Below the pieces are notes generated by a model. It searched no databases, was not told where the DNA came from, and saw only the letters and a program-made list of their open reading frames with translations. The position numbers and the translations under genes were made by a program. Of a stretch of 64,000 bases of DNA, positions 3,727 through 63,528 are shown piece after piece; the stretch's first letter is position 1; each line of letters opens with the position of its first letter. The DNA comes from an uncultured Pseudomonadota bacterium (lineage in GTDB: Bacteria; Babelota; Babeliae; Babelales; Vermiphilaceae), in the NCBI GenBank assembly GCA_964647685.1, contig CAZYJE010000006.1, positions 25,624 through 89,623 on the forward strand. Direction: 5' to 3'.

Positions 3727-6132
3727 TTATTTTTTATAATTTTTTATAAATTCAATTATAGAATCCTGATTTAAAGATAAAGAGTCGATAGAAAGTTTAA
3801 TCAGTAGTTGAGCTATTTCGGGAAAATCTGAAGGTCCTTGCCCGCAAATGCCAATATATTTTTTATTTTTGTGAGCTCCAGTAATTGCAAGTTCAAACAT
3901 TTTTTTTACTGCCATGTCTCGTTCATCAAAAATATGGGCAAGAAGGCCAGAATCTCTATCAACACCAAGTGTTAATTGCGTTAAATCATTAGAGCCAATA
4001 GAAAAACCATCAAAAAGTTTACTAAATTCATTTATTAAAATAACATTTGATGGTATTTCACACATCATAATAATTTCTAAGTTATTTTTCCCTTTTTCTA
4101 GGCCTTGATTTTCCATGATTTGTAAAACTTTTTTCCCTTCTTTTACTGTTCTGACAAAAGGAACCATTACTTTAACATTTGTAAGTCCCATCTTTTCTCT
4201 AACTTTTTGCAAAGCTTGGCACTCTAAAATAAAAGCTTCTTTATACTCATTGCTATAATAACGAGATGCTCCTCTGTAGCCAAGCATAGGATTTTCTTCA
4301 TGTGGTTCAAAGTAGGTGCCGCCAATTAAATTTCGGTATTCATTTGTTTTAAAATCAGAAAGTCTAACAATAACAGGCTTTGGGTAAAATGCAGCTGCAA
4401 TCATTCCAATTGAATGGGCGAGTTTATCTATAAAAAACTGTTTTTTATCTTTATATCCTTGTGTAATATCTTCAATGAATTTTTTTATTGAAGCATCAGT
4501 TATTTTTTCTGGTTTCAAAAGGGCAAGTGGATGTATTTTAATATTGTTATTAATAATAAATTCTAATCTTGCAAGGCCGACACCATCATTTGGAAGCATA
4601 GAAAGAGTAAAAGCTCGTTCAGGGTCTGCAATATTAATCATAATTTTTGTAGGCACATCATTTGTCGAAATATTTTGTATTTCGATTTCTTTTTTTTCAA
4701 AAGGTATCGCTCCTTTATAGACAAATCCAGTTGTTCCTTGGCTACAATCAAGTGTTATTGTTGATTCATTTTCAATAGTTTTTGTTGCATTTGCTGTTCC
4801 TACAAGTGCTGGAATACCAAGTTCTCTACTTACAATTGCCGCATGACATGTTCTTCCACCATGGTCTGTTATGATTGCTCCAGCTTTTTTCATAATTGGA
4901 ACCCAGTCAGGATCAGTCATTTGTGTAATAATAATATCACCATCTTTAACAGATTTTATTTCTGTTGGGTCTTTAATAATTCGTGCAATACCAGAAACTA
5001 TTTGCTGACCAATGCTTTGTCCTTCTAAAATTGTTTCTATTTTATTATTAGCGACATTATTTTTTATGAGATGATATTTTGTGAGGATATTCATTTTTTT
5101 TGTTGTATGGACAGTTTCTGGTCGTGCTTGAATTATGTACAGCTTATTGTCTTTGCCATCTTTTGCCCATTCAATATCCATTGGGCACCATGTGCCTTTT
5201 AAGTTTGTATAGTAATCTTCAATGGTTGCAATTGCTTTTGCAAGTTCTATAATTTCTTCATTTTTTAATGAAAAACTTTGTTGCTCTTGTTTTGTTGTCT
5301 CTATTGTTTCGGTTGGATTATCTGTATCATTTGTATAAATAATTTTTATTTTTTTTTCTCCAATATTTTTTTTAATGATACTTGTAAATCCTTGTGCAAG
5401 TGTTGGTTTATGAATAACAAATTCATCAGGTATTACTTCACCTTTTACAATAGATTCGCCTAGTCCATAGGCGGAATTGATAATTATTGCATCTTTAAAG
5501 CCACTTTCTGTATCTAAAGAAAAAGCAACACCAGAAGATGCTAGATCAGAGCGAATCATTTTTTGTACGCCAACTGAAAGTGCAACTTGAAAATGGTCAA
5601 ATCCTTTTTCTGTCCGGTAAACAATTGCTCTATTGGTAAAGAGTGATGCTAAAGCTTTTTTATAAGCTTCAAGAAGGTTTTTGTGTCCAGTGATATTTAA
5701 ATATGTTTCTTGTTGTCCAGCAAAAGAGGCATTAGGTAAGTCTTCTGCAGTTGCAGATGATCTGACGGCAACATCGCAATCATTTTGATTATATTTTTTA
5801 CAAAGATTATCATAGGCTCTTGTAATTTCTTGGGCTAAATCATCTGGAATTTCTCCACTTAAAATTAAAGACCTGACAGAACTGCCAGCTTTTTCTAGTT
5901 GTTCTATATTTAAATGATCTTTTAACTCTTGAAATATAGTTTTTATTTTCTCGTTAAACTGATTATGTTGTATGTAATAGTCATATGCTTGAGCTGTGAC
6001 AGCAAAACCTGTAGGAATAAGGATATTTTTTTTTGTTAGATTGGCAATCATTTGACCAAGTGATGCATTTTTTCCGCCAACAAGTGGAATATCGTTGATT
6101 GTTAAGTTTTCAAATAATTTAATATATTTCAT
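3727..6132 (-). CDS. ppsA: phosphoenolpyruvate synthase (pyruvate, water dikinase)
   Basis: 801 aa. N-terminus VGGKNASLGQM, phospho-His region GGRTCHAAIVSRELGIPALVG and C-terminal PEP-utilising domain FFSIGSNDLTQL-like (FSIGSNDLTQLTLG). Confidence 0.93.
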   Translation of the reverse strand: MKYIKLFENLTINDIPLVGGKNASLGQMIANLTKKNILIPTGFAVTAQAYDYYIQHNQFNEKIKTIFQELKDHLNIEQLEKAGSSVRSLILSGEIPDDLAQEITRAYDNLCKKYNQNDCDVAVRSSATAEDLPNASFAGQQETYLNITGHKNLLEAYKKALASLFTNRAIVYRTEKGFDHFQVALSVGVQKMIRSDLASSGVAFSLDTESGFKDAIIINSAYGLGESIVKGEVIPDEFVIHKPTLAQGFTSIIKKNIGEKKIKIIYTNDTDNPTETIETTKQEQQSFSLKNEEIIELAKAIATIEDYYTNLKGTWCPMDIEWAKDGKDNKLYIIQARPETVHTTKKMNILTKYHLIKNNVANNKIETILEGQSIGQQIVSGIARIIKDPTEIKSVKDGDIIITQMTDPDWVPIMKKAGAIITDHGGRTCHAAIVSRELGIPALVGTANATKTIENESTITLDCSQGTTGFVYKGAIPFEKKEIEIQNISTNDVPTKIMINIADPERAFTLSMLPNDGVGLARLEFIINNNIKIHPLALLKPEKITDASIKKFIEDITQGYKDKKQFFIDKLAHSIGMIAAAFYPKPVIVRLSDFKTNEYRNLIGGTYFEPHEENPMLGYRGASRYYSNEYKEAFILECQALQKVREKMGLTNVKVMVPFVRTVKEGKKVLQIMENQGLEKGKNNLEIIMMCEIPSNVILINEFSKLFDGFSIGSNDLTQLTLGVDRDSGLLAHIFDERDMAVKKMFELAITGAHKNKKYIGICGQGPSDFPEIAQLLIKLSIDSLSLNQDSIIEFIKNYKK

Positions 6133-6201: not shown

Positions 6202-6331
6202 CGTCTTTGCGAACTTGCGTAAGCAAGTGTGGCAATCTAGTTAATTTTGTTTTTCTTCCGTCTAATTTATATTTTAATAATTATTGAAGTTATTTAATTA
6301 ACTGGATTGCCACGCTTCGCTCGCAAAGACG
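6202..6331. repeat. GC-rich inverted-repeat element, locus A (U' - 57-nt AT spacer - U); REP/REPIN/MITE-like
   Basis: 6300-6331 (AACTGGATTGCCACGCTTCGCTCGCAAAGACG) is identical to 62442-62473. 6202-6242 is its imperfect inverted partner and carries an inserted 16-nt hairpin. Confidence 0.75.
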
Positions 6332-47798: not shown

Positions 47799-47805
47799 AT
47801 TTAAA

Positions 47806-50271
47806 TTATTTATTTATAAACAACTTAATTGCAGAAATAAATCCTTGAATATTTTTCTGCAATATATCAAGACCAACAGGACTTGGAACTCTTTCTTTTA
47901 TCGGTTGTAAAATCTTATTACTTTTATTTACATTCTGCTGTAGTTGTGCAATCTGTTGTTGCATAAATTCCGTTATAAAGCTTAATTCATTAACTGTTAA
48001 TAATTTTAAATTGCCAAGTTTCTGTAAAGACTCTTTTAAGCTTAACTTTGACTGCATTTGTTCTTCTAGATTTGTAATAATTGTTGAAATTTGAAAAATA
48101 AACTCTATTTTTTTCAAATTCTCTTTCTCTTCTTGAGTTAGTCCAGTAGTAACAGCTTGATTATAATATTCATCATATAATTTTTGAAATTGCTTTTGTT
48201 CTTTTTTAGACGCAGTTTTATCAACTATTTTTTTAGATAAATTTTGCCAAATAGTTTTAGCCTTATTATCCTCAGTGTCAGTAAGTTCACTTGTAATTGA
48301 TATAATCTGATTTTTAACTTTTTGATCTAACTCTTGAAATTCTTTTTGTAATTGTTCATCTGATAAATTGCTAAATTTATTCAACTCTTTGTACTGATTA
48401 GCTTTATTTTTATCTTCTTGAGAGCTTTCAGACTTACTCATTTCTGCAATTCCTCTATTTTTAAGAGTCTGCAGCTGGTTCTTTTCTGGAATGGTTATCT
48501 GATTAGACACTAATTTTTCTTGTAATACCTTTATTCTTTCTTTGTCTTTATCGTTTAATTTTGAAAAAGCTTCTTTTCTAATTTTTTCAAATTCACTTTC
48601 AAACGTACTTGCAAAATCATTAAATGATTTATTTATAAGAGCTAAAGAAAGATCTAAACTATTATCAATGCCTTTATACATCCATAAAATATCCAGCGGC
48701 AAATCCAATTCTTTATTTGCATACAATTTTGCAATGTCACTTTGTAAAACATTAAGCTTTGCAAGCAGTGGGTTTGATTTTAGTTCTATATTTTTTTTAT
48801 ATTTTTTTTCGACTGTAGCTTCAATATTCTCTTCTTTTATCTGTTCTATAAGCTCAACAATTACTTCTTTTGCTTGTTGGCAAAGGGCATTTAATTTAGG
48901 TATATGAGTTTGTACCAAATTAAAATCTTTAACATTGTCCACTACTGTTGCAAAAATATCATCAAACCGTTGTGTCTCTTTAAAAATTCCTGATATATCT
49001 TCAAGAATTGATTCTAGCTTTTTAACTAACTCTTGTGATGAAAGTTTCTCTTTTTCTTCCTTGTCATCTTTGTCATCTTTTTTTAAAGATTCAGATTTAT
49101 TTTTTTTAGATCCACTATCTTTTTTATCTGATTGACTCAGTCCAGGAGCAGTTTTTTGTTGTGGAACATAACCAGAAGGTGAAGAATCTAGGCCTTGAAA
49201 ATACTCATCTGGCATATCACTGCCAACTGCAAACTGTTCTTTTTGACCAACAAGCTTAACAGGAGTTTGGCGAATTGATTTTTTCGATTCACTCAATGCT
49301 TTGCTTGTCAAAGCAGATTCTTGACTTTCGATTTTTTTTGCTTTTGGATCGTATGACTTAAAAACATCATTAATACTTTCAATTATATTTTTATCTTTAT
49401 TGAGTAAAGTATTGATAATCAAGTTAGTTGCTATTCTCAATGCCTTACTAGATTGCTTTTTAACAACTGGATCTAGAGATTCTACTTGTACATTTATTTG
49501 ACTAACATATTCATCAAAGGTTGTAGAAAATGTATATAGTTGAGAATATAAATCTTCATTTTTTAATAAATAAGAAATATATTTATACTTTTTAGTTTTA
49601 GTATCTCTATCTTTTAATTTATATAGTTGTTGCTTAAACATTTGTAGTTGTTGATTAATTTTTTGCCAAGAAATATTTTTTATTTCTACATCTATTTTTC
49701 TTCTTTGTGCCCATTTTGAAAATTTTTCATCAAAATTATCTATAGTCGCAATTTTAAGTTCAAATGAATCAATCGTTGCAATAATTTCATTAATAAGTAT
49801 TACTGCTTGTTTAATTTTTGCTTCCTTTTTCTTATCTATAGATTTCTTCTTCTTTGGTTTTTCTTCTACTGGTTTTTCAATAGGTTCTTGTATAACTGGA
49901 GGTTTTTTAAAATCAGTTGGGGCAGCAGATGGTTTTTGCTCTTGTTGAAAGGCTTTTTCTAATTCTTGTTCAACCTGTCTTAAATAAGCTTCTCTTTCTT
50001 CATCCGACATTGCTTCTATTTTTGCTATTTCCTGCTGAACCTCTTCTTGTTGCTCTGGAGAAAGATTTTGAAAAATATTTTCTGTAACTGCCTGCATATA
50101 TGATTGTTGCTCTTCTGGAGAAAGGTTTTTAAAATCTTCTTCGCTCAAGACTGGTAGGTCCATATCCATTTGCTGCTGAGCAAGTAGATTGTTATGGTTA
50201 AAAAAATATATACCACAAAATAATAAAATTAATTTGATATTAAAAAAAAATATTGAATTTTTACGAAGCAT
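47806..50271 (-). CDS. large orphan secreted coiled-coil protein (Glu/Lys/Gln-rich)
   Basis: 821 aa with a hydrophobic N-terminus, duplicated NLSPE(E/Q)QQ motifs and charged low-complexity tracts (KKDDKDDKEEKEK). Confidence 0.6.
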   Translation of the reverse strand: MLRKNSIFFFNIKLILLFCGIYFFNHNNLLAQQQMDMDLPVLSEEDFKNLSPEEQQSYMQAVTENIFQNLSPEQQEEVQQEIAKIEAMSDEEREAYLRQVEQELEKAFQQEQKPSAAPTDFKKPPVIQEPIEKPVEEKPKKKKSIDKKKEAKIKQAVILINEIIATIDSFELKIATIDNFDEKFSKWAQRRKIDVEIKNISWQKINQQLQMFKQQLYKLKDRDTKTKKYKYISYLLKNEDLYSQLYTFSTTFDEYVSQINVQVESLDPVVKKQSSKALRIATNLIINTLLNKDKNIIESINDVFKSYDPKAKKIESQESALTSKALSESKKSIRQTPVKLVGQKEQFAVGSDMPDEYFQGLDSSPSGYVPQQKTAPGLSQSDKKDSGSKKNKSESLKKDDKDDKEEKEKLSSQELVKKLESILEDISGIFKETQRFDDIFATVVDNVKDFNLVQTHIPKLNALCQQAKEVIVELIEQIKEENIEATVEKKYKKNIELKSNPLLAKLNVLQSDIAKLYANKELDLPLDILWMYKGIDNSLDLSLALINKSFNDFASTFESEFEKIRKEAFSKLNDKDKERIKVLQEKLVSNQITIPEKNQLQTLKNRGIAEMSKSESSQEDKNKANQYKELNKFSNLSDEQLQKEFQELDQKVKNQIISITSELTDTEDNKAKTIWQNLSKKIVDKTASKKEQKQFQKLYDEYYNQAVTTGLTQEEKENLKKIEFIFQISTIITNLEEQMQSKLSLKESLQKLGNLKLLTVNELSFITEFMQQQIAQLQQNVNKSNKILQPIKERVPSPVGLDILQKNIQGFISAIKLFINK

Positions 50272-50349: not shown

Positions 50350-50421
50350 CTGGTATCTAAAATGAAAAAAAATGGTTTTTTACTTCTGGTATCTAAAATG
50401 AAAAAAAATGGTTTTTTACTT
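50350..50421 (+). repeat. perfect 36-bp tandem duplication (x2) spanning the pseudopilin start codon
   Basis: CTGGTATCTAAAATGAAAAAAAATGGTTTTTTACTT occurs at 50350-50385 and again, identically, at 50386-50421. Confidence 0.9.
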
Positions 50422-50760
50422 ATAGAAATAATGATTTTTCTTGGAGTGATGAGTATATTTTTTATAACCATTAGTCAGTACTTTACTACTTTACTCATTA
50501 CTTATGAAAATAGTAATAAAAAGATAGAAGCATTTAATAAAGCATCAAAAATACTAAATTCTTTATTGCAAAACTATGATGATTCAGTCAATAGCAAAGA
50601 TACTATAATTTCTGAAGTTTCTTCTGGAATAAAATTACCAGCTATTTTTGTAAATAATAATAAAAAGAAAACTTTCAAGCCTATAAAAATAACAACAAAA
50701 TGGGTCGATACGAATGGCAATGAAAAAGAAATTCAACTTGTTTCAGCCTGTGTTGTTTGA
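50398..50760 (+). CDS. pseudopilin / type IV pilin-like protein
   Basis: The prepilin leader and methylation motif MKKNG|FLLIEIMIFLGVMS starts at the second ATG (50398). ORF track starts at 50362, in the duplicated copy. Confidence 0.7.
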   Translation: MKKNGFLLIEIMIFLGVMSIFFITISQYFTTLLITYENSNKKIEAFNKASKILNSLLQNYDDSVNSKDTIISEVSSGIKLPAIFVNNNKKKTFKPIKITTKWVDTNGNEKEIQLVSACVV

Positions 50761-61199: not shown

Positions 61200-62324
61200 T
61201 TAGTTATTTGCTGTTGGAGAAACCGGCATAACCAAATAAACCAAGTTGAAATTTTCTGTTTTTGTTTCAAAAATAATTGGTCGAGATGAATCTTTTAAAG
61301 AAAATCCAATAGTACTATCAGAAAAAACTTGGAGTCCATTTAATAAGTAAGGAGCATAAAAACGAATATTCATATTTTCACCATCAAATTTTTCCAGCGG
61401 TACATTTTCTTCTAGTTTACCAACTTCTTTATTTTGCATAGACACATTCATATAATCAGATGTAAAATCAAATTTTGTAGCAATAAATTGTCCAGAAAGT
61501 AAACAAGAAGACCTTCTTAATGTTTTTATAAAATGAGTTCTGTCTACCGTTGCTCCAACAAATCCTTTTTTATCTAAAATTGGTTGATACTCAGGAAATG
61601 GATCAACAAGTAATTTTGTAAAAAAGTTAAATGATTCGCCAGAAAAAACTAACTGATTATTGCAAACTCCAAGAAATACATGAGCTGAATTAGAACCTTC
61701 CAAAATCTTTTTTAGTTCAAAAATTGCTCGCCTTGGCAGTAACCATTTTTTATCTTGCTCTAATGTATATTTAGATGAAGTAACTTGCGCCAAACAATGA
61801 CCATCGGTTGCTGTCATTTTAAGCTGATCACCAGAAATCTCTAAATACAAACCGTTAAGAGCTGTGTTTGAATTATTTTGCGGAATCAAAAAAGCAACTT
61901 TACTAAGAATTTCAAGCAAAAAAGATGACTCCATTTCCATCAAATTTTCTATGCGCTCTGGAAACGGTGGAAACTCTTGCGCATCTTTAATCTTAAGAGC
62001 CAAATTTACTGATCCAGACTTAATCAAAAGTTGATCATTTTTCATGTAAAATTCAATTTCACCATCAAGCTCTTTTACAAAGTCAAAAATTCGACGCCCT
62101 GAAACTAAAAAAGATTTTGGCTCTTCGATATCGCTACTTTTGACTAAATAACTTGCTTGTAGACTAATTTCTAAATCTGTACTTTTAAGTACTAATTCTT
62201 TGTGCCCGATATGAAATAAAATAGATGTTGTCGTATCAAGTGTCGTACGTTTTGTACAAATAGGTTGCATAGAAGATAGAATTGCCATTAAAGATTTTTG
62301 ATCTACAACAAATTTATTTTTCAT
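61200..62324 (-). CDS. dnaN: DNA polymerase III beta sliding clamp
   Basis: 374 aa with a three-domain repeat pattern; LNGLYLEISGDQLKMTATDGHCLA and the C-terminal YLVMPV are typical DnaN. Confidence 0.93.
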   Translation of the reverse strand: MKNKFVVDQKSLMAILSSMQPICTKRTTLDTTTSILFHIGHKELVLKSTDLEISLQASYLVKSSDIEEPKSFLVSGRRIFDFVKELDGEIEFYMKNDQLLIKSGSVNLALKIKDAQEFPPFPERIENLMEMESSFLLEILSKVAFLIPQNNSNTALNGLYLEISGDQLKMTATDGHCLAQVTSSKYTLEQDKKWLLPRRAIFELKKILEGSNSAHVFLGVCNNQLVFSGESFNFFTKLLVDPFPEYQPILDKKGFVGATVDRTHFIKTLRRSSCLLSGQFIATKFDFTSDYMNVSMQNKEVGKLEENVPLEKFDGENMNIRFYAPYLLNGLQVFSDSTIGFSLKDSSRPIIFETKTENFNLVYLVMPVSPTANN

Positions 62325-62441
62325 ATGATACCTGCCATGTTCAATGTACTAATATTTTTTATTTATAATCCTTCATTAGTATAATAAAGAACAAAAAAAT
62401 AGAAAGAAAATTAAGACATAATGATTGCTTCGCTCTTAATA

Positions 62442-62577
62442 AACTGGATTGCCACGCTTCGCTCGCAAAGACGAAAAAAGAATATTTATTTTCTATATAC
62501 ATATGATTTTTTAAATAAGAAAATAACCAAGTAACCTGTCTTTGCGAGCCTATAAAAATAGGCGCGGCAATCCAGTT
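62442..62577. repeat. GC-rich inverted-repeat element, locus B (U - 64-nt AT spacer - U')
   Basis: 62442-62473 is identical to 6300-6331. 62538-62577 (GTCTTTGCGA[GCCTATAAAAATAGGC]GCGGCAATCCAGTT) is the inverted partner and carries a different inserted hairpin. Confidence 0.75.
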
Positions 62578-62619
62578 TATTTTATAATATTTCATTTAAA
62601 AACTAAAAAATAAAAAACA

Positions 62620-63528
62620 TCACGAACGTGAATGTTTTTTGTCATAAACTTCACGTAAATAATTTGTATCCAAATGTGTATAAATTTGCACTGTCGATAA
62701 ATTTTCGTGCCCTAAAAGCAGCTGTAAAGACCTTAGGTCGGCTCCATTTTTCAGCATATGCGTTGCAAGCGAGTGCCGCAACTGATGGGGAGAAATCACT
62801 TTATCGCTGCCCGTTTTTTCCCACAGCTCTTTTAAAATAAACCAAAACGACTGACGAGAAATTGGCTTCATTTTGCCACCATAATAAACAGGGAACAAAT
62901 AATTACCTTTATTATGTTTTTTGCCACCATCTAAAAATTTATGCAAAACATCGGTAATATATTTTTTAAGCAAATCTAAAATAGAATCTGGAATTGGAAT
63001 ATGCCTACCCTTTCCACCCTTTCCTGCAACGGCAAGGACTTTAGAATCAAAATGAACTTGAGAAATAGTGAGTGTTGTAAGCTCTGTAATACGCATACCA
63101 GAAACATACAGTAAAAAAAGCATTACCTTGTTGCGAACGCCAATATCTGTTGTATCAAGCTCTGCAACTTGAAACAATTTTTTTAGTTCCAATTCGCTTA
63201 AATAACGTGGCAATTTTTTGTCTATTTTAGGGAAATGCAAATCGGTAGCATGATTTTTTGTTCCTAAATATTTGCTTGTGTAAGAAAAAAAAACCTTTAA
63301 AGAAGAAATTTTGCGAGCCATAGTACGAGCACTAAGATTCAGCTCTTTTAAATGGTACAAAAAACTTTTAACCTGCTCAGCTGTACAACTTTCAACAACT
63401 GCCTTATGAGTAATATGTAAAAAAGTAATCAGTTGCTTAATGTCCCGTTTGTAAGCATCAAAGGTATTTTTAGAAACTCGCTTTTCTGTAAGTAAAAATG
63501 TTTCAAAACGCATCAATGCCATACTCAT
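62620..63528 (-). CDS. xerD: tyrosine site-specific recombinase XerD
   Basis: N-terminal SAM-like domain (FETFLLTEKRVSKNTFDAYKRDIKQL), RQSFWFILKE (compare XerD RQTFWHRIKH, from memory), and catalytic HQLRHSLATHML...LLGHENLSTVQIYTH. Confidence 0.85.
   Translation of the reverse strand: MSMALMRFETFLLTEKRVSKNTFDAYKRDIKQLITFLHITHKAVVESCTAEQVKSFLYHLKELNLSARTMARKISSLKVFFSYTSKYLGTKNHATDLHFPKIDKKLPRYLSELELKKLFQVAELDTTDIGVRNKVMLFLLYVSGMRITELTTLTISQVHFDSKVLAVAGKGGKGRHIPIPDSILDLLKKYITDVLHKFLDGGKKHNKGNYLFPVYYGGKMKPISRQSFWFILKELWEKTGSDKVISPHQLRHSLATHMLKNGADLRSLQLLLGHENLSTVQIYTHLDTNYLREVYDKKHSRS

Follow-up and report, generated by a model that had tools for sequence, protein, structure and literature searches.

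The repetitive extragenic palindromes (REPs) tagged with CGTC form a superfamily of intergenic repeats with a CGTC head (variants TGTC and CCTC), a CCA tail and a stem of 8-9 bp, which opens with complementary A/T pairs at its first two positions and closes on loops of 4-5 nt (Di Nocera et al. 2013, PMC3733652). Their dimers, often heterodimers, mostly have the tags outside (HH), less often the tags inside (TT) and in a few cases lie in tandem. The superfamily comprises the families CGTC-1 to CGTC-4, spans five phyla and includes dRS3 of Neisseria and RPE-4 and RPE-6 of Rickettsia. According to the same survey, CGTC REPs have no associated transposase and never accompany RAYT genes, and bulged repeats may have escaped the screen (PMC3733652). 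Here we analyse related hairpin units in a stretch of 64,000 nucleotides from an uncultured bacterium of the Dependentiae (contig CAZYJE010000006.1, positions 25,624 to 89,623; hereafter the window), in which an initial annotation had described a GC-rich, REP-like inverted pair.

An enzyme that acts on one group of such repeats has since been described. The Neisseria NTS (CGTCATTCCCGCGMAVGCGGGAATCYRG), which contains dRS3, and the Ssn-related motifs (SRMs) are bound and cut by SsnA-family GIY-YIG nucleases, exclusively as single-stranded DNA (ssDNA) and exclusively on the tagged strand (Chenal et al. 2025, PMC11893778). The cut is made a few nucleotides away from the motif, on its 5' side. Both the GTC that precedes the palindrome and the C that follows it are critical, and mutation of Y6, Y17 and E64 of SsnA abolishes cleavage. 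The ssn genes are typically flanked by the motif themselves (NTS-ssnA-NTS), and in Neisseria meningitidis the system modulates natural transformation. A hairpin with oriented flanks is the recognition site of a single-domain Ssn of ~100 aa in the Neisseria NTS, in Wolbachia and in others, and SRMs have been searched for with the string HGTCWYN(0-2)YYVSBRHN(0-5)WNVSBRGN(0-2)RNCYNB (PMC11893778).

The window contains four units of this general kind (three had been reported), arranged as two inverted doublets, which we call locus A and locus B. They are probably non-autonomous CGTC-REP/SRM doublets, in which the predicted ssDNA hairpin would be the recognition site of an Ssn-type GIY-YIG nuclease. 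The initial annotation was not aware of such a family in this kind of genome. The family as such has been described, given the match to both the CGTC-tagged REP superfamily and the SRMs. In a narrow sense, for the Dependentiae, the remark may hold, as we found no literature report of the family for this group and the published SRM string does not match the units. Literature searches with the unit sequence strings returned unrelated primers only, and the RepRanger and HUH-endonuclease papers merely cite PMC3733652.

Unit anatomy and structural constraint on the hairpin

Read from the head, the units have the form (C/T)GTC - TTTGC - GA - variable insert - CG(Y) - G - GCAAT - CCAGTT. Three of the window heads are CGTC and one is TGTC, all unpaired in the unit folds. 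An outer stem of 4-5 bp (TTGC/GCAA) leads into a small purine-rich internal loop (GA opposite GYG) and then into an apical stem of 2-6 bp with a loop of 3-4 nt (GAA, GTAA or AAAA). The apical hairpin is GC-GAA-GC in the short unit and consists of 6 bp closed by a 4-nt loop in the two longer ones. On the 3' side the tail is again unpaired, reading TCCAGTT in three units and TCTAGTT in the fourth. The GTC of the head and the C after the stem, the positions that are critical in Neisseria, are intact in all four. The units stand out from their surroundings in base composition (45-56% GC, as against 14-16% in the spacers between paired units and 29% in the window).

Every sequence statement in the initial annotation was borne out. 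Its 32-mer, AACTGGATTGCCACGCTTCGCTCGCAAAGACG, does recur exactly at the two loci, and none of 100 dinucleotide-preserving shuffles of the window matched it, even with up to three mismatches allowed. The imperfect inverted partner at locus A has the sequence given for it, its insert pairs into a hairpin of 6 bp that closes on a GTAA loop, the spacer of 57 nt between the partners is AT-rich as stated, and the single C-to-T difference yields a G:T pair in the long fold. That fold, proposed as a long interrupted stem, lies far below shuffled sequences: as DNA, the locus A doublet forms a long interrupted hairpin at -32.3 kcal/mol (z -8.8), and as RNA it reaches z -8.9 and -9.7, one value per strand. 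Complementarity between the two units extends a few bases into the spacer (TTAATT / AATTAA). At locus B the doublet folds with z of -9.1 to -10.3. The dimers are very stable, whereas the short unit alone is barely so (-2.8 kcal/mol, z +0.4); the longer unit of locus A, taken alone as ssDNA, reaches -7.9 kcal/mol (z -3.0).

The hairpin is under structural constraint. Columns that are fixed by our own search pattern (given below) cannot count as conserved, and two other lines of evidence bear on the point. First, 166 distinct inserts form hairpins more readily than shuffled versions of themselves (Wilcoxon p = 2e-13). Second, the outer stem varies in a compensatory manner, as TCCGC/GCGGT (seven cases), ATCGC/GCGAT and TTCGC/GCGAT (four cases each) and TCTGC/GCAGT (three cases). 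At the tail of 107 non-identical units, the successive positions are C in 107, C in 88 or T in 17, and A in 107, a count that is partly set by the search pattern.

The units share with the CGTC REPs the CGTC or TGTC head, the A/T start of the stem, the CCA tail (CTA in one unit), the HH and TT heterodimers, the intergenic position and the presence in distant phyla, although the Dependentiae and Patescibacteria lie outside the five phyla of PMC3733652. The ATTGCGAG type may be one of the families CGTC-1 to CGTC-4. With the SRMs and the NTS they share an oriented hairpin, whose unpaired head fits HGTC(W)(Y) and whose tail fits RNCYNB (AATCCAG), and an occurrence in hundreds of genomes across phyla. 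In other genomes, inverted copies also bracket a GIY-YIG gene, as described below. The two kinds of unit differ in the stem, which in the NTS is perfect (ATTCCCGC/GCGGGAAT) and here consists of (A/T)TTGCGA...GCAAT with an internal loop and an apical hairpin of 7-34 nt.

A widespread subtype and the GIY-YIG genes that it brackets

A scan of 185,579 representative genomes with the pattern AACTRGATTGCC-N(5-35)-TCGCAAAGAC returned 56 stretches that carry both 10-12-nt blocks around a variable insert, where we would expect ~4 by chance (our own estimate, for 22 specified bases). They come from Patescibacteria, Legionellaceae, Gallionella, Nitrosomonas, Sphingomonadaceae and other Alphaproteobacteria, and Treponema, as well as from Bacteroidota, Planctomycetota, Gemmatimonadota, Verrucomicrobiota and others; the genome of the window was not among them. 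A metagenome collection added 83 stretches with both blocks, none from a close relative of the window organism, and a collection of viral contigs held no copies of the two-block pattern. The family is not specific to one lineage, and very many genomes hold further copies. A relaxed pattern gives their general form as GTC(A/T)TTGCGA - insert - (G/A)GCAATC(C/T)AG.

Across these loci host GC ranges from 0.29 to 0.68, yet the 22-nt core is near-identical throughout, and an identical 31/32-mer is found in loci of 35, 38 and 58% GC. Such uniformity in hosts of such different composition argues for sequence-specific recognition, rather than for a requirement that is merely met by a stable stem. In genomes other than that of the window, 33 pairs are HH, 16 are TT and nine are tandem, with spacers of 4-136 nt; single units occur too. 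Two loci of a Moranbacteria metagenome-assembled genome (MAG) are particularly dense, with ~15 units per 10 kb. The stems of these units co-vary as one of two types, ATTGC/GCAAT or ATCGC/GCGAT, and dimers often alternate between the two.

Units of the Neisseria NTS type (TGTCATTCCCGCG....GGGAATCCA) were also seen, at 519-602 of a Legionella oakridgensis locus (L152) and at 2924-2950 of an unrelated contig of 38% GC (L158). Both loci hold TTGCGA-type units as well, which indicates that the two motif subtypes coexist in one genome.

An all-against-all BLASTP comparison of the open reading frames (ORFs) from the 56 loci yielded mostly generic families, such as response regulators and ABC ATPases, each at no more than five loci. 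The sole informative cluster was a homologous pair of small ORFs, one from Paceibacteria and one from a gammaproteobacterial MAG, each inside a tags-outside pair of units. Both proteins are single-domain GIY-YIG proteins (PF01541, E = 4e-17 and 7e-14), and a third locus (L064) has a GIY-YIG gene in the same tags-outside layout. Searching with a profile of these three proteins gave at least 8000 homologues at E <= 1e-10. We then looked in the reverse direction, at the genomic context of four homologues, each on a long contig and each from another lineage: Legionella oakridgensis, a 632-kb ENA contig, a Moranbacteria MAG and a contig that has the gene flanked by dnaK and dnaJ. Every one of them has a CGTC(A/T)TTGCGA...GCAATCCAG unit 10-50 nt upstream of the start codon and a second, inverted unit 1-20 nt past the stop. 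Altogether, in every one of the seven independent lineages examined, a tags-outside pair of TTGCGA-subtype units encloses an Ssn-like gene.

These proteins are 96-101 aa long, and GIY-YIG is their only Pfam domain. Y9, Y20 and E67 are invariant, with the same spacing as Y6, Y17 and E64 of Neisseria SsnA. We call them Ssn-like (the Ssn family is cd10448) on the basis of the domain, the length and the Y/Y/E spacing; PDB and NCBIfam gave no useful match for the GIY-YIG protein.

Two of the cassettes are compact insertions into conserved gene neighbourhoods. In one (L158/L159, 4940-5320) the ssn-like gene and its two flanking units are wedged between dnaK and dnaJ, and in the other (L154) a cassette of the same kind lies between lppC and a UPF0102 gene. 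Many contigs in the profile match list that carry an Ssn-like gene are merely 0.5-2 kb long. This fits repeats that break assemblies, so Ssn-like genes and their motifs are likely to be under-represented in binned genomes.

The two doublets in their genomic setting

The coordinates of the units and of the neighbouring features are collected in Table 1. At locus A the two units form a tags-outside (HH) heterodimer, and at locus B a tags-inside (TT) heterodimer, so that the two loci have opposite geometries. The second unit of locus B had been missed by the initial annotation. Beside locus B, the short stretch GATTGCTTCGCTC may be a decayed third unit; it agrees with the canonical GGATTGCTTCGCT...CGCAATGACG form over 12-13 nt, a match that is weak and short enough to have arisen by chance.

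Table 1. Units, spacers and neighbouring features at loci A and B, with other repeats noted in the window (window positions).
Feature	Position	Strand	Description
Unit A1 (U' of the initial annotation)	6202-6242	+	From block matches and ssDNA fold; letters CGTCTTTGCGA-ACTTGCGTAAGCAAGT-GTGGCAATCTAGTT; head CGTC (6202-6205), TTTGC arm, GA, ACTTGC-GTAA-GCAAGT apical hairpin, GTG, GCAAT, tail CTAGTT
Locus A dimer spacer	6243-6299		57 nt, 14% GC
Unit A2 (U of the initial annotation)	6300-6331	-	From sequence, exact match to B1; CGTC-TTTGC-GA-GC(GAA)GC-GTG-GCAAT-CCAGTT; CGTC head 6331-6328
Possible decayed third unit	62422-62434	-	GATTGCTTCGCTC, beside B1
Unit B1	62442-62473	-	Identical to A2 over 32 nt (41 nt at 95%); CGTC head 62473-62470
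Locus B dimer spacer	62474-62536		63 nt, 16% GC
Unit B2	62537-62577	+	Letters TGTCTTTGCGAG-CCTATAAAAATAGG-CGCGGCAATCCAGTT; TGTC-TTTGC-GA-GCCTAT-AAAA-ATAGGC-GCG-GCAAT-CCAGTT; TGTC head 62537-62540
ppsA-like gene	3727-6132	-	Phosphoenolpyruvate (PEP)-synthase-like; start at 6132
Small ORF	from 6515	+	44 aa
brnQ-like gene	from 6704	+	Branched-chain amino-acid transporter
dnaN	61200-62324	-	Start faces locus B
ORF across locus B	62359-62595	-	78 aa
xerC/D-type recombinase gene	62620-63528	-	3' end faces locus B
Perfect inverted repeat	47752-47808		27 nt, 3-nt loop
Tandem duplicate	50350-50421		Exact, 36-nt unit

Locus A occupies a divergent intergenic region between the ppsA-like gene and, on the other side, the small ORF and the brnQ-like gene; Pfam backs the brnQ assignment and finds PEP-utilising domains in the ppsA-like product. 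Locus B lies between the 3' end of the xerC/D-type gene and the start of dnaN. The 78-aa ORF that covers the whole doublet there is called as a gene in public assemblies (6840-7076 of L003), and it is probably a spurious call made by the repeat.

The window DnaB has its closest named homologues (72-76% identity) exclusively among Candidatus Dependentiae or Babeliales, which places the organism in the Dependentiae (TM6), and window proteins are also present in marine-biofilm metagenome assemblies. Relatives within the Dependentiae whose DnaB is 78% identical share the gene order L9-DnaB-RuvC...RecF-DnaN-XerC-ProRS. In these syntenic relatives there is no unit in the orthologous DnaN-XerC spacer, nor elsewhere in ~35 kb. 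It follows that the doublet at locus B was inserted in the lineage of the window and is no conserved regulatory element.

The window has several other features of note. Cumulative GC skew climbs until ~58000 and then drops, and gene orientation switches at the same place: mostly + strand genes lead up to it, and beyond it recF-dnaN-xerC and the genes around them lie on the - strand. The pattern resembles the convergence of replication forks, which is unexpected near dnaN; the syntenic relatives have the same convergent layout. A 36-nt unit, CTGGTATCTAAAATGAAAAAAAATGGTTTTTTACTT, is exactly duplicated in tandem across the start of the ORF at 50362-50760. The perfect inverted repeat of Table 1 (TAATTTAAATAAAAAAAGGCTCAACTT / AAGTTGAGCCTTTTTTTATTTAAATTA) lies between two convergent ORFs, 44964-47759 (+) and 47806-50271 (-), and looks like a bidirectional terminator.

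Other identities were tried for the doublets and rejected. Many of the matching taxa are rich in integrons, and attC sites were considered; by eye there are no RYYYAAC/GTTRRRY core sites, and the units occur as isolated inverted pairs and not in cassette arrays. Known non-coding RNAs, whose overlap had been named as a possible refutation of the initial annotation, gave no Rfam match above noise at either locus: the gathering-threshold search of the window recovered two tRNAs elsewhere only, and permissive searches of both intergenic regions gave sub-threshold matches to plant miRNA precursors and snoRNAs, which reflect the long hairpin. Promoter-like matches at the loci stayed at the level of shuffles. 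Several independent assemblies break inside units. We do not take these breaks as a sign of many copies, since an exact 32-nt repeat at two known loci is already enough to break a k=31 graph.

Weighing the explanations

On the explanation that we favour, a unit would fold whenever its DNA becomes single-stranded, exposing an unpaired head, an outer stem with its internal loop, an apical hairpin and an unpaired tail. The TTGCGA...GCAAT core would be the cognate site of one Ssn subclade, with ssDNA binding and cleavage carried over by analogy from the characterised relatives. The two doublets would be non-autonomous copies, comparable to REPINs, that were inserted in the Dependentiae lineage of the window. 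Ssn may also be what spreads the units, the ssn gene between two inverted motifs having the look of a miniature insertion sequence. In a region made single-stranded by replication, recombination or DNA uptake, the doublets could then act as nuclease targets or recombination hot spots for an Ssn whose gene lies elsewhere in the genome; with no Ssn remaining there, they would be relics.

Several observations weigh against this explanation. The published SRM string matches none of the four window units and none of 262 units of the subtype, although Neisseria NTS controls match. The mismatch is in the 5' stem arm, TTGCGAG, which YYVSBRH does not admit; the HGTCWY head and the RNCYNB tail do fit. 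The units also lack the perfect 8-9-bp stem of the CGTC REPs, having instead an interrupted stem of 4-5 bp with an internal loop and a variable centre. Among ~136 unit-centred loci, an ssn gene is found at three, which is expected for a dispersed repeat and carries little statistical weight. Finally, the window together with ~10 kb of extra flank taken from other assemblies (~74 kb in total) contains neither an ssn nor any other GIY-YIG gene, and this flank adds no further unit; four units in ~74 kb give no sign of a high copy number there.

The last points lead to the strongest rival, that the units are orphan relics of a horizontal transfer or an old burst, whose cognate nuclease is gone and which have no specific role now. 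The low number of units with no ssn nearby, the possible decayed unit beside locus B, the relatives without units and the reduced genomes of the Dependentiae would all suit such a history, which we regard as possible but not as the likelier case. Yet A2 and B1, at a distance of 56 kb, agree in all of 32 nt, and the GTC head and post-stem C are intact in all four units, which speaks for recent spread or ongoing constraint and against relics. In any event, relics would belong to the same family and have the same origin as active doublets; the two accounts differ in present-day activity only.

A second possibility is that the doublets act mainly as RNA, as terminators, 3'-end stabilisers or processing sites, with their history as DNA being secondary. 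Both are very stable as RNA on either strand (z -8.9 to -10.3), and locus B, just 3' of xerC/D and with the co-directional dnaN following it, would be part of a read-through transcript. Many REPs do sit 3' of genes and are probably transcribed (PMC3733652). Locus A, however, is between divergent genes and 3' of nothing, no terminator of the stem-plus-T-tract type was detected at either locus, and Rfam is silent on both. The empty orthologous spacer in the relatives speaks against a conserved regulatory part of dnaN/xerC, and the near-identical core in hosts of 29-68% GC against a role that needs just a stem. We judge an RNA function unlikely as the main explanation, while a side effect on transcripts at locus B is possible.

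The initial annotation placed the pair among REPs, REPINs or small MITEs (miniature transposable elements with inverted repeats) rather than terminators and expected mobilisation by RAYT, an IS200/IS605-like Y1 transposase. Intergenic palindromic inverted dimers of this general class are indeed what the loci contain, so its interpretation as a whole is partly supported; the RAYT mechanism and the MITE are the parts that fall away. The likeness to REPINs and BIMEs made of GTAG REPs is considerable: inverted doublets of short, GC-rich palindromes dispersed between genes, folding into long hairpins, an oriented unpaired tag on an ssDNA hairpin, and an enzyme gene bracketed by repeats in a REPtron-like fashion. 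Here, though, the heads are CGTC or TGTC and none is GTAG, and CGTC REPs, as noted above, are never associated with RAYT genes according to PMC3733652. No transposase family recurs near the units at the 56 loci, 20 small or unassigned ORFs of the window have no Y1 or other transposase domain and no nuclease domain, and the enzyme that the TTGCGA subtype brackets, at ~97 aa, is a GIY-YIG nuclease and not an HUH Y1 transposase. By analogy, IS200/IS605 elements also depend on an imperfect ssDNA hairpin recognised together with a short adjacent unpaired sequence, with cleavage beside the hairpin. Their left and right hairpins differ, however, and flank a Y1 transposase (with or without TnpB), whereas units of the window type are identical or near-identical, occur in all orientations and mostly enclose no gene. 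Mobilisation by RAYT is accordingly very improbable. Least credible of all is a small MITE moved by a DDE-type insertion sequence: locus A does resemble a 130-bp element with inverted ends of 32-41 nt and an AT-rich core, but locus B joins its units the other way round, so that the opposite ends lie outside, units elsewhere are single, tandem or inverted either way with spacers of 4-136 nt, neither doublet is flanked by a target-site duplication, and no transposase is near (56 loci; 20 window ORFs).

The explanation by CGTC-REP/SRM doublets accounts for what were two odd GC-rich islands in the window. Both the kind of feature (from the 2013 description) and the mechanism (from 2025) were already known. 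What is new is modest: the family in the Dependentiae, a widespread TTGCGA...GCAAT subtype that is associated with Ssn, and the blindness of the SRM string to this subtype. Surveys made with the published string undercount motifs, because they miss the subtype entirely. The puzzle of 2013, CGTC REPs without a dedicated enzyme, is thereby joined to the Ssn discovery of 2025 for one further and very common subtype.

A bolder proposal, which we put forward tentatively, as possible but less likely than not, is that (A/T)TTGCGA...GCAATCCAG units are a distinct and widespread Ssn specificity class unseen by the SRM pattern, and that the unit-ssn-unit cassette is an active, GIY-YIG-driven ssDNA mobile element seeding non-autonomous doublets across phyla. 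Should it prove to move, the cassette would amount to a transposable element based on a GIY-YIG ssDNA nuclease. As site-specific ssDNA cutters, new Ssn specificities are of practical interest too. The Dependentiae (TM6) are obligate symbionts or parasites of protists. Should the proposal be true, it would supply the missing mobilising enzyme of the CGTC REPs, and the reach of the system would include host-dependent Dependentiae and Patescibacteria.

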